Below, one piece after another: positions 25,694 to 34,450 of a stretch of 64,000 bases of DNA (position 1 is its first letter; every line of letters starts with the position of its first letter). The notes under the pieces were generated by a model. It made no database searches. It was not told the DNA's origin and worked only from the letters and a program-made list of their open reading frames with translations. This DNA comes from Escherichia phage phAPEC8. Both the position numbers and the translations under genes were made by a program. The stretch lies in the sequence record NC_020079.1; one strand, 5' to 3'.

Positions 25694-26164
25694 TCTAGCC
25701 TCCTAAACGCGTCTCTGACGCACTTTTTATATATAAGATGATAAATCACCTTACCTAGTAAGTAAGCTTGCTCTACGAGCCTCTTATGAAGCTTAAGTTA
25801 TACTATTGCTACCTGTTTAAGCAAGGTTTTGCACACAGAAAATAATTTTTAATAAAACTCTTGACTTTTGTGTTCGAAGTATGCTACCCTAGAAATCTAT
25901 TAACGAGCGCAGCGAGTTAAGGTTTTAGGTTGTTGATGTAGTACTCTGTACTAAAGCACTGTACTCCGTACTAGATTAATAATTATTAAATATTAATAAA
26001 TAATTATTAGATCTAACAAACAGGTACAGTGTATCAGAACTGGTACGTACATATCAACTTCTATCAATTAAAAAATAAAATAATAAATTATTATAAATAA
26101 TACTTGATCTATAAATCAGTATGAAGTACAGTACGTAACATCTTAACAAGAATGGAGGTGTGCA
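25694..26164. promoter_or_regulatory. divergent AT-rich control region between the leftward and rightward gene blocks
   Basis: About 470 nt without a credible ORF; GTAC-containing repeats (GTACTCTGTACT, CTGTACTCCGTACT, GTACAGT, GTACGTAC) and AT-only near-palindromes. Confidence 0.45.
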
Positions 26165-26350
26165 ATGATTAGTGAGAATCCGTGCAAATGGCATCATGTG
26201 CCTATTAAAGATTGTATGTCTTGTAATCCACGTTCTATTTATAACATTGCATCTTATGATGATGACAATGTGTTAGACGATGATGAAGGCTGGGAGGATT
26301 TAGATTGGACTGGTTATGAAACCAAAAAGGATAAAATTATTCCTAGTTGA
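26165..26350 (+). CDS. small Cys-containing acidic protein (61 aa)
   Basis: ORF track; GGAGG RBS. Confidence 0.4.
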   Translation: MISENPCKWHHVPIKDCMSCNPRSIYNIASYDDDNVLDDDEGWEDLDWTGYETKKDKIIPS

Positions 26351-27142: not shown

Positions 27143-27217
27143 GGCCCTGTAGCTCAATGGGAGAGCTGTCGGCTCATAACCGATAGGTAGCTGGATCGAA
27201 ACCAGCCAGGGCCACCA
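27143..27217 (+). tRNA. tRNA-Met (anticodon CAT)
   Basis: Hand-folded cloverleaf: acceptor GGCCCTG/CAGGGCC, anticodon loop CTCATAA, encoded CCA; T-loop ATCGAAA. Confidence 0.7.
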
Positions 27218-27219
27218 AC

Positions 27220-27294
27220 GTCTTTATGGTGTAATGGATAGCACAGGAGTCTTCTAAACTCTTAGTCAAGGTTCGATTCCTTGTAAAGACACCA
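27220..27294 (+). tRNA. tRNA-Arg (anticodon TCT)
   Basis: Acceptor GTCTTTA/TAAAGAC, anticodon loop CTTCTAA, T-arm CAAGG-TTCGATT-CCTTG, CCA. Confidence 0.7.
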
Positions 27295-27490
27295 GAACAT
27301 TTTAACATGAATTAGCTCAAGTGATTTGAACCCACTACTGATCATGGTGGCAGAGAATGAGGCAAGTATGTCAGACATTATAAACAAAGGCCACGGTTAC
27401 ATTAGAAGACATAAATGCTCGAAGAGCACCGTTCGTGGAGAACGGGGGTTGGTGGAGTCACCATTCATGGTAAAATGTTTTAAAAAACTA

Positions 27491-27520
27491 TTGACAACTA
27501 ACATTATTTTATGTTAGATT
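27491..27520 (+). promoter_or_regulatory. sigma70-like promoter inside the tRNA operon
   Basis: CTATTGACA, 17-nt spacer, TTAGAT/TAGATT -10; a few nt upstream of tRNA-Ser. Confidence 0.45.
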
Positions 27521-32827: not shown

Positions 32828-34393
32828 GTGTCAACAGGAAAAAGAACGTACACTAAAAAGTCAGAATACTGGGACAAAGGTGCTGCAAATAAAGCTGCTC
32901 TCTCTCCAACAAAAGAGGCAGAGAAAGAGAAAACGTTACTCCTGTCACCTGAAATAGGAACGATCGGATTAAACTCAATCAAAGCATTTACGAATTTCAT
33001 GCAACCTTATGAGACTCGTTTCCCAGAATGTATTCGCACTTTTAAAGAGATGGGTGAAGACCCTGATGTAGCTACTGCTCTTGACGCTACATATATCTTT
33101 GTAGATAGAGCATTCTTTGATTTCAAGATAAAATACAATGTAAACTCGGCAAAGTCAAGAAAAGCTGCCAAGTTTATTGATTACATGTTACGCAATATGC
33201 AAGCCCCTCTACGTCAATATGTTAGATCACTTTTGACATATAAGCAATATGGTTTTGCATTCGCAGAGAAAGTTTATGAGTTGGATGAAGATCCTAAAAG
33301 TCCTTACTTTGGGTATTGGCGATTGACCAAATTGGCTTTTAGACCACAAGACACTCTTCACATGGCTCAACCTTTTACATATTCGGCAGACGGACGTTCT
33401 ATTCTATCTGTTAACCAGAATATCACCAATACGATGTTAGCTCCAGGTAATACAACTTTAGAAACTGGTATCAAAGAAATTCCTTTCAGTAAAGTTTTAT
33501 TTGTTGGTAGCAACATTACAGAGAATAACCCACTAGGAGTTAGTCCGCTTTTAGCTGTATATCGTAGCTGGCGTGAAAAATCTCTTATTCAGGAATTTGA
33601 GGTTATTGGGGTATCTAAAGATTTAGGCGGTATGCCAGTTCTCAAGGTTCCAAGTGACATTCTAAACAGGGCATCTTTAGATCCTGCTGGGGATGAAGCA
33701 CAATCTCTTCGAGTTCTCCAAGCCAACATCGCTAACCTGCACTCTGGTGAGCAAGCCTACATGGTATTGCCTTCAGACGTTTATGAAGGTACAGTGATGC
33801 GTCAATACGATCTTGTATTCCAAGGTGTTGATGGCACGGGTAAACAGTTTGACACTCAAGCGCTAATCAAACAACGCAAACTGGATATTTATAACCGTTT
33901 TGGTGCGGGTGTGTTGATTATGGGTGATGGTGATGCAGGAAGTTTTGCGCTTTCTGACAACAAACAAACACTATTGTCTCATTTTATTGAGCGAGATGTA
34001 GATATTGTTGTAGAAGCTATAAACTCTCAACTGATCCCTCAAACACTACGATTAAACAATATCTTCCTCTCTGATGAAGATATGCCTAAGTTTGTCAGTG
34101 GTGAAATGGGTGATCCTGATATTGAAGTAAATGCTAAAGCTATTCAGCAGTTGGTAGCCTCTGGTGCAATACCTTTAACCCCAGAAGTTATTAACGAGTT
34201 CCTTGAAAAAATTGGTTTTGAATATCGCATCCCTGATGATATTGTTGCCAACAAAGAGAAATTCTTTGAATTCATGGATAACTATATGCCTGACAAAACT
34301 TCACGATCAGGAGATGGTTTAGCTACAGCAGGAACTGGAACATCTGATAGCATTTCTGCTTTAGATCCTTCAGCACAAAACCTGTCGAATTAA
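32828..34393 (+). CDS. portal protein
   Basis: 521 aa, directly downstream of the terminase large subunit; GTG start with GGAGGA RBS. Confidence 0.65.
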   Translation: MSTGKRTYTKKSEYWDKGAANKAALSPTKEAEKEKTLLLSPEIGTIGLNSIKAFTNFMQPYETRFPECIRTFKEMGEDPDVATALDATYIFVDRAFFDFKIKYNVNSAKSRKAAKFIDYMLRNMQAPLRQYVRSLLTYKQYGFAFAEKVYELDEDPKSPYFGYWRLTKLAFRPQDTLHMAQPFTYSADGRSILSVNQNITNTMLAPGNTTLETGIKEIPFSKVLFVGSNITENNPLGVSPLLAVYRSWREKSLIQEFEVIGVSKDLGGMPVLKVPSDILNRASLDPAGDEAQSLRVLQANIANLHSGEQAYMVLPSDVYEGTVMRQYDLVFQGVDGTGKQFDTQALIKQRKLDIYNRFGAGVLIMGDGDAGSFALSDNKQTLLSHFIERDVDIVVEAINSQLIPQTLRLNNIFLSDEDMPKFVSGEMGDPDIEVNAKAIQQLVASGAIPLTPEVINEFLEKIGFEYRIPDDIVANKEKFFEFMDNYMPDKTSRSGDGLATAGTGTSDSISALDPSAQNLSN

Positions 34394-34421
34394 AAATATT
34401 TAATATTTTTTAATTTTTCTA

Positions 34422-34450
34422 TTGACAAAACAACAAATATCCTGTAGACT
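34422..34450 (+). promoter_or_regulatory. sigma70-like promoter upstream of the head-assembly genes
   Basis: ATTGACA, 17-nt spacer, TAGACT. Confidence 0.4.

Follow-up and report, generated by a model that had tools for sequence, protein, structure and literature searches.

Conserved promoter-like sites and a clade-specific, GTAC-rich palindrome at a gene-orientation switch of Escherichia phage phAPEC8

Among the described systems closest to the region discussed here, an intergenic stretch between divergent gene blocks of Escherichia phage phAPEC8, are divergent sigma-70 promoter regions with A/T-rich UP elements (as in rrnB P1, and in the early promoters of phages T4 and T5 with their A/T-rich upstream tracts) and the converging promoters of coliphages 186 (pR/pL) and P2 (Pe/Pc). 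The region occupies positions 25694..26164 (no strand assigned) of 64,000 nucleotides (nt) of sequence record NC_020079.1, here called the window, and was delimited from the open reading frame (ORF) list, the sequence and the annotation of relatives. Phapecoctavirus comprises the phAPEC8-like myoviruses of E. coli, with genomes of roughly 150 kb, in the subfamily Stephanstirmvirinae. These phages and their relatives are among the E. coli phages isolated most often and are used in therapy cocktails, and about 60 Phapecoctavirus phages in GenBank match the window at 97-98.7% identity over 2 kb.

The region shares with these sigma-70 promoter regions its -35 and -10 hexamers with 17-18-nt spacers, the frequent extended -10 TG, A/T-only tracts that stop 1-8 nt upstream of a -35 hexamer, and a single A/T tract common to back-to-back promoter-like sites. 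Unlike them, it has unusually long tracts of pure A/T (35-37 nt), one of which (AT1) is away from any promoter-like site, and a rightward promoter candidate (P_R1) with the atypical -10 TACCCT and a conserved box downstream. As in 186 and P2, two promoters, P_R1 and the leftward P_x, would converge with an overlap of about 100-150 bp, and this arrangement is kept in five lineages. However, the 186 and P2 systems are temperate lysis-lysogeny switches with known repressors, whereas phAPEC8 is virulent and its overlap is a predicted one.

The region is probably a compound control region of host sigma-70-type promoters, conserved across the Stephanstirmvirinae, with UP-like tracts and a dispensable palindrome specific to one clade. 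It is mostly ordinary. Conserved promoter-like sites of host type face in both directions, and one phage lineage has acquired among them a GTAC-rich palindrome of 127 bases. The main strand switch is mapped here as four promoter candidates, one UP-like tract common to two of them, a promoter-plus-box family of three members and the clade-specific palindrome.

Promoter-like sites and A/T tracts in five lineages

The window was compared with the equivalent spacers of phiWec190, Citrobacter phage Tr1, phi92 (Justusliebigvirus) and Klebsiella phage FKP3, all of which keep a homologue of the flanking 107-amino-acid (aa) gene. Mean column identity of the spacer across the five lineages is 62%, yet three promoter-like sites (P_R1, P_x and P_R2) are conserved in all five with respect to position, strand, spacing and key bases, while the intervening sequence diverges. 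Each has -35 and -10 hexamers of the sigma-70 type at 17-18-nt spacing. P_R1 (25861..25890, + strand) consists of TTGACT, an 18-nt spacer and the extended -10 TGcTACCCT, with a predicted transcription start site (TSS) at about 25897. Its form in the five lineages is TTGAC(T/A), a 17-18-nt spacer and TG-n-TACCCTA, and TTGAC and TG.TACCCTA are invariant. P_x (26028..26057, - strand) was called by the consensus scan and consists of TTGATA (26057-26052), an 18-nt spacer and TGaTACACT (-10 at 26033-26028), with a predicted TSS at about 26021; all five lineages have a positional equivalent, and the 40 nt upstream of it are 88-97% A/T. P_R2 (26104..26132, + strand) consists of TTGATC, a 17-nt spacer and TACAGT, with a predicted TSS at about 26139. 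Its equivalents are TTGACT-18-TAGAGT in phiWec190, TTGACT-17-TAGAGT in phi92, TTGACC-17-TAGTAT in Tr1 and TTGACC-17-TACACT in FKP3. The fourth candidate is a proximal leftward promoter, P_L (25738..25765, - strand), with a -10 TATCAT (25743-25738) and a -35 TTACTT (25765-25760). The activity of all four as promoters is inferred from these sequence features.

The two longest A/T-only runs of the window are both in this region, at 26066-26102 (37 nt) and 25975-26009 (35 nt), and they are also the two longest of the complete 149,471-bp genome of the relative 536P1. Runs of at least 35 nt are expected about 0.001 times per 64 kb. The first, AT2 (26066..26102, no strand), separates the -35 hexamer of P_x from that of P_R2, the two sites being back to back, and a tract in the AT2 position is found in 5/5 lineages, with 85-97% A/T over the 40 nt upstream of P_x and P_R2. 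An A/T-rich tract at about -40 to -60 is thus present for both promoters in every lineage compared, and likewise at 34388-34428. AT2 would serve as an UP-element-like tract shared by P_x and P_R2. A 19-nt A/T-only run (25839..25857, no strand), the fourth longest of the window, stops 3 nt before the P_R1 -35 and so occupies an UP-element position. The second of the two longest runs, AT1, is the centre of the large palindrome and adjoins no promoter-like site; apart from AT1, each of the three longest runs lies within 8 nt of a -35 hexamer. From their positions, the A/T-only tracts appear to serve adjacent promoters as UP-element-like upstream DNA.

The third-longest A/T-only run of the genome (34388-34418, 31 nt) is outside the region, between a 521-aa ORF and the gene that follows it, and stops 4 nt before a promoter-like sequence TTGACA-17-TGtAGACT. 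The segment 34388-34450 is a strong candidate for an internal promoter with an UP-like design as at AT2.

A sequence-only reading of this DNA had described an ORF-free region between a leftward and a rightward gene block, with long A/T-only near-palindromes, and had proposed a divergent promoter hub or a replication origin. The gap does extend from the start codon of a leftward gene (25693, - strand) to that of a rightward gene (26165), and the A/T tracts are extreme in both the window and the related genome. The promoter hub is also supported, by the three sigma-70-type sites that retain position, strand and hexamers in five lineages and by the A/T-only tracts directly upstream of -35 hexamers, both in this region and at a further promoter-like site of the window. 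The proposed arrangement is one of two back-to-back pairs, P_L (leftward) with P_R1 (rightward) around the short A/T run, and P_x (leftward) with P_R2 (rightward) around AT2, in which the A/T-only tracts would act as UP-like DNA for the promoters next to them. P_R1 and P_x point at each other with predicted starts about 125 bp apart, and their transcripts would overlap, an arrangement that may couple leftward to rightward expression through interference or antisense control.

P_R1 is followed by a promoter-proximal box, CGAGCGCAGCGAG (25904..25916, + strand), at about +8 to +20 of the predicted transcript. The box, CGAGCG-n-AGCGAG, is invariant in 5/5 lineages, lies 13-14 nt 3' of P_R1, and occurs once in the window. 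In 536P1 the combination TTGACT...TATG(C/G)TACCCTA, 13-14 nt, CGAGCG(C or AT)AGCGAG is found exactly three times, at 145,970 (+), 74,792 (-) and 107,344 (-). That genome has no further copy of the box, so that all three copies follow a TTGACT...TG.TACCCT promoter. It may be an operator or a leader element. A search for a wider family, in which viral contigs were scanned with CGAGCGNAGCGAGNTAAGGT, returned one true relative and a 2.2-kb IMG/VR contig with three similar boxes; the latter were dismissed as a chance match, the contig encoding Rep and an Arg-rich capsid protein and hence belonging to a circular Rep-encoding single-stranded DNA (CRESS-DNA) virus.

A parallel for P_R1 and its box is the promoter-early stem-loop (PeSL) cassette of T4-type phages, which likewise combines an early-type promoter with a conserved downstream element in repeated copies (three for P_R1 plus box). 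Unlike PeSL cassettes, the box is not a stem-loop, there are three copies only, and the locus bears no sign of cassette-mediated shuffling. A separate set of at least seven repeated cassettes at about 83.5-90.7 kb of 536P1, beyond the stretch covered by the window, does resemble PeSL cassettes; these consist of a predicted strong promoter, TTGACA, 14 nt and TG(A/T/G/C)TA(A/T)(G/T/A)(A/C)T, then ...CA(T/C)A(G/A)GGCGG... GC-rich hairpins. At 25936-25941 of the window, 20 nt past the box, a minimal ORF (ATG TAG) follows AGG and is invariant in close relatives. The family member at 74792 of 536P1 has ATG TAA 10 nt past its box, and this pattern may be due to chance.

The GTAC island and the 127-bp palindrome

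The window contains 64 GTAC tetranucleotides (1.0 per kb) where 194.6 are expected by a Markov model, a ratio of 0.33. Nine of the 64 are found in the 194 bp from 25941 to 26134, where 0.2 would be expected from the window frequency (Poisson P ~1e-12). In 536P1, GTAC is the rarest of all 256 tetranucleotides relative to expectation (0.31), followed by CCGG (0.36), GGCC (0.42) and CTAG (0.52), and its sole GTAC cluster is this locus, with 10 copies in 250 bp; the runner-up has 3. The ratio in a 50-kb sample of E. coli K-12 is 0.90, so the avoidance is a property of the phage rather than of its host. The clustering of GTAC motifs that had been noticed at the outset is therefore genuine, every motif string quoted at that point was found as quoted, and the genome-wide motif search that had been suggested as a check gave, for GTAC in 536P1, no similar density elsewhere.

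Four of the nine GTACs are inside core elements of P_x and P_R2: GTACGTAC is in the P_x spacer, another GTAC is in the P_x discriminator, and GTACAGTAC extends across the P_R2 -10. The remaining ones contribute to an irregular tandem GTACT array (25941..25973, + strand) that reads GTACTCT GTACTAAA GCACT GTACTCC GTACTAG. The array holds four GTACs in the window and five in relatives, and is 14 nt, or about two GTACT units, shorter in dw-ec. Tandem Repeats Finder (TRF) gave it no score because it is too irregular. The GTAC island is thus real, statistically extreme and specific to one clade, with one part in promoter cores and another in the repeat array of a long palindrome. The sister clades have GATC/AGATCT-containing sequence in place of the GTAC motifs, and they have no AT1; the GTAC motifs and this first A/T palindrome lie outside the conserved skeleton of predicted promoters.

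The palindrome is imperfect, spans 127 bp (25932..26058, no strand) with 46 predicted pairs, and is present in the core Phapecoctavirus clade only. Its outer arms are GTTGATGTAGTAC and GTACGTACATATCAAC, its middle arms CACTGTAC and GTACAGTG, and its inner part is AT1 (25975..26009, no strand), a 35-nt A/T-only near-palindrome. GTAC is self-complementary, so that the GTACs of opposite arms face each other. The folding z-scores are -4.7 (RNA) and -3.8 (DNA), against -0.5, -0.5, +0.8 and -1.5 for the equivalent spacers of four sister lineages, and after correction for GC content the windows covering the palindrome rank sixth and ninth among 4258 sliding windows. When 10 close relatives were aligned, pairing was kept in 95.8% of cells. 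Covariation in the same 10 relatives was not significant (one double change, reached in 78/500 shuffles) and gives no evidence of selection on pairing.

The palindrome lies where transcription from P_R1 and P_x would converge. Just before it are short tandem repeats of TTAAGGT and TTTTAGG (25917..25931, + strand) with a copy number that varies among relatives: UP17 and Ro121lw have 7 additional nt and anhysbys 9. The alignment of close relatives also contains slippage-type TAA and A-run indels. The AT1 variants include a 3-nt TAA indel in the loop and, in UP17, a C insertion that extends the left arm to mirror the right-arm AGATCT. Overall the control region is about 95% conserved, against 97-98% for its flanks. 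The palindrome is an acquisition of the core Phapecoctavirus clade alone, and its probable source is slippage of repeats or a duplication within a spacer where transcription would converge. It would modulate the P_R1/P_x pair, either by offering a platform for binding or by folding into a hairpin in each of the two transcripts, and would be dispensable. Such a dispensable modulatory role is our best guess from the sequence.

The GTAC motifs had also been taken as iterated protein-binding sites. This has not been borne out, since the GTACs are missing in sister clades that have the same promoters and neighbouring proteins, and it is further weakened by the slippage variation among close relatives and by the four GTACs that fall in the P_x and P_R2 cores. 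The small proteins encoded next to the region were considered as GTAC binders. Those of 61 aa, 83 aa (with two CxxC pairs) and 107 aa gave no Pfam domain, and their PHROG matches are all without an assigned function. The 83-aa zinc-ribbon protein has counterparts of 87% identity in phiWec190 and of 65-70% identity in phi92-like phages (Justusliebigvirus), Tr1 and FKP3. Since none of these phages has the GTAC array, the protein does not co-vary with it, and this candidate was dropped. GTACT and GCACT resemble the TrpR half-site, GNACT, and CGTACTAG would match half of the trp operator; the full operator is absent. DnaA, IHF and ArgR consensus sequences were looked for by eye in the region, and none was seen. 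A T4-type late promoter is unlikely as well: TATAAATA is present at 26094-26101, but rV5-type phages lack gp55/gp33 homologues (PMC3606486).

Three observations, namely the island, the avoidance of GTAC across the genome and its extreme loss in KKP 3954 (OR067838), suggest that these phages are under real pressure from restriction or modification specific to GTAC. In the deposited KKP 3954 genome 5/9 cluster GTACs are altered, which indicates that single island GTACs are not strictly required. Outside the island, 23/43 aligned GTACs are altered (53%), compared with a mean loss of 9% for other tetranucleotides; the changes are mostly to GTAT or ATAC, and the genome GTAC ratio is down to 0.15. 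Synonymous and non-synonymous GTAC changes number 12 and 10, compared with 871 and 207 for all substitutions, and the non-synonymous ones include Cys to Tyr. Either GTAC has been purged under very strong, restriction-driven selection in this phage, or the record contains systematic basecalling errors at modified GTAC; no paper on KKP 3954 was found in the literature.

A different view of the palindrome and its GTACs is that they are neutral, a by-product of slippage and palindromic duplication in a transcribed spacer that tolerates change, in which GTACs packed into 200 bp add almost no restriction cost past the first. Copy-number and indel polymorphism between near-identical genomes is consistent with this, as are the 7- and 10-nt periodicity of AT1 found by TRF, the absence of the module from sister clades, the degraded arrays in the dw-ec and KKP 3954 records and the covariation result. 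However, there are five GTACs beyond the tandem array where about 0.2 would be expected, the GTACs are symmetric across the two arms, and two window-specific substitutions both improve palindrome pairing. In addition, all nine cluster GTACs are the same in the window and 536P1 (0/9 differ) while 22% differ elsewhere, although with only nine sites P is about 0.1. Neutrality of the whole module is thus possible but unlikely. Equally tentative is the opposite proposal, that the palindrome is a functional cis-element acquired by the clade, either an origin or a platform for a GTAC(T)-recognising protein, with its 9-10 GTACs held by positive selection despite a genome-wide purge that would presumably be exerted through GTAC-specific host restriction.

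Several points tell against the interpretation of the region as a compound set of sigma-70-type promoters with UP-like tracts and a dispensable palindrome. The -35 of P_L is poor in the Phapecoctavirus clade: it is weak in the window, and a consensus TTGACT/TTGACA is found only in Tr1 and FKP3. The P_R1 -10, TACCCT, agrees with TATAAT at 3/6 positions, which is why the consensus scan missed P_R1. The UP-element idea fails to account for AT1, which is away from any promoter-like site, and promoter function alone leaves unexplained the persistence of 9-10 copies of a tetranucleotide that is counter-selected to 0.31 of expectation. The covariation result given above is a further such point, and a literature search found no transcriptome, TSS or 5'-end data for the Stephanstirmvirinae.

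Replication-origin and packaging-site explanations

The primary origin of T7 consists of promoters phi1.1A/B and an A/T-rich region, and T4 oriF and oriG combine a middle promoter with a downstream DNA-unwinding element. In herpes simplex virus (HSV) oriS/oriL and the simian virus 40 (SV40) core origin, a palindrome centred on A/T carries short inverted repeats and is placed between divergent genes. The region discussed here resembles the phage origins in that a promoter is followed by very A/T-rich DNA within about 80-200 bp, and the replisome of relatives is T7-like (PMC3606486). It differs from them in that the subfamily-wide A/T tract is placed upstream of two promoters and GC skew adds no independent support; the resemblance is one of sequence features only. 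With the HSV and SV40 origins it shares an A/T-rich centre, inverted copies of a short motif and divergent flanking genes, but this is an analogy of shape with an element of one clade, in an entirely different biological system.

Cumulative GC skew had been proposed as a check on an origin, and the window does have its minimum at the locus, at about 26 kb. In the whole 536P1 genome, however, there are minima at about 76 and 146 kb and maxima at about 38 and 109 kb, and each of the four coincides with a switch in gene direction. At the second junction between divergent genes there is an ordinary spacer of 115 bp. Since skew tracks gene orientation at 4/4 switches, the minimum is no evidence for an origin; the predicted minimum was there, but it is not specific to an origin, and the skew argument was dropped. 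The same conclusion on skew was reached for the relative rV5 in its genome paper (PMC3606486), and placement of origins by GC skew is unusable in these genomes.

If the region were an origin, transcription from P_R1 (or P_x) into an A/T unwinding element would provide the start, with persistent RNA, or an initiator on the inverted GTAC(T) repeats around the A/T centre, priming a PolA-type polymerase and a gp4-like primase-helicase; the relative rV5 encodes a DNA polymerase of family A and a primase-helicase of the gp4 type (PMC3606486). The succession of promoter, A/T-rich DNA and palindrome would fit a transcription-primed origin, both of the longest A/T-only runs of the genome are at the locus and downstream of P_R1, and the palindrome is statistically exceptional. 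Besides the uninformative skew minimum, several observations disagree with this model. The GTAC/AT1 palindrome is missing in sister clades whose flanking proteins are 87-92% identical, so that the origin would have to be clade-specific. No initiator candidate was seen to co-vary with the palindrome: GTACT repeats are confined to one clade, and the small proteins encoded nearby, the zinc-ribbon protein among them, are kept in clades without GTAC. AT2 is also fully accounted for by its place between two -35 hexamers. With the skew argument lost, anatomy (promoter, A/T-rich DNA, palindrome) is what is left of the origin suggested by the sequence-only reading, and nothing specifically marks the gap as a replication origin; the GTAC island is a curiosity. 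An origin here is therefore doubtful, and we consider a dispensable modulatory cis-element or a neutral repeat product more likely.

The pac site of phage P1 has clustered Dam hexamers, TGATCA/G, on both sides of the cleavage site. The region is like it in having multiple copies of a short, methylatable palindrome-containing motif around a centre, and a pac site or genome terminus could be imagined here, upstream of the tRNA cluster and a presumed terminase-portal module, with GTACs flanking the cleavage site much like the hexamers of P1. A 691-aa ORF, taken as the large terminase subunit, is 4.5 kb downstream, with only tRNAs and small ORFs between, and the ends of the nieznany record (MN850598) fall within the palindrome. 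However, reported termini were found for only one phage of the subfamily, BME3, in which PhageTerm identified direct terminal repeats of 342 bp (PMC12210895). These are homologous to about 93-94 kb of 536P1, whereas the present locus is at 146 kb, some 52 kb away, though BME3 belongs to a different genus. The module is also missing in sister clades with the same gene order, and the nieznany break lacks 68 nt in an A/T-rich palindrome, as is typical of an assembly drop-out. The likeness to P1 pac is thus one of sequence motif, with the termini of a related genus reported elsewhere, and a pac site or terminus at this position is very improbable. The nieznany record as deposited ends within the palindrome/AT2 region (window 26028-26095), and assembly drop-out is the most likely explanation for these ends, rather than a true terminus.

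Neighbouring genes and minor features

To the left of the gap is a leftward block of small and metabolic (early/metabolic) genes. The 5' leader of its gene next to the gap contains a small hairpin, GCGTC-AGA-GACGC (25709..25721, - strand), directly upstream of a GGAGG ribosome-binding site, and the scan scored this hairpin as terminator-like on the + strand. Stem-forming sequences with other stem bases are found at this position in phiWec190, Tr1 and phi92 as well. To the right, the rightward block opens with a GGAGG ribosome-binding site and ATG (26154..26167, + strand) for a 61-aa Cys/His-rich protein with a PHROG match of no assigned function. This gene starts at 26165 and is the first of those for small Cys-rich proteins, after which come 11-12 tRNA genes (27143-29148). 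Beyond the tRNA cluster are the 691-aa ORF (30651-32726) and then the 521-aa ORF; their size and position are the sole basis for reading them as terminase and portal.

Within the gap, annotation in GenBank records is limited to two 'repeat_region' features over the A/T tracts, and no Rfam family had a match at E <= 1 between 25694 and 26164. Frame-shifting indels (-8, -5, +/-1 nt) in close relatives speak against a coding role for the small ORFs that overlap it, those of AT2 and the spacer included. The left half of the region tolerates gene insertion, as phiWec190, phiWec181 and PsgM04F have an additional 70-aa gene on the leftward side, with the conserved TATCAT promoter-like site at one end of the insertion and a distal one, also leftward, at the other.

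The number of tRNA genes in the window is probably 12 rather than 11. A sub-threshold, tRNA-Sec-like Rfam match at 27529-27615 was not called by ARAGORN, and the ASO2A record has a tRNA-Ser(TGA) at the equivalent position. Just past the tRNA cluster, a weak RyhB-like Rfam match at 29235-29289 (29.4 bits, E = 0.026; gathering score 55) is probably a terminator hairpin. The leftward block includes a set of dTDP-rhamnose biosynthesis genes, rmlA/B/C/D-like (KKP 3954 coordinates 115864-119144), along with PhoH, an HslV-like protease, RdgC and ribonucleotide reductase. For phi92-like phages, the BASEL paper mentions putative machinery for dTDP-glycosylation (PMC8594841).

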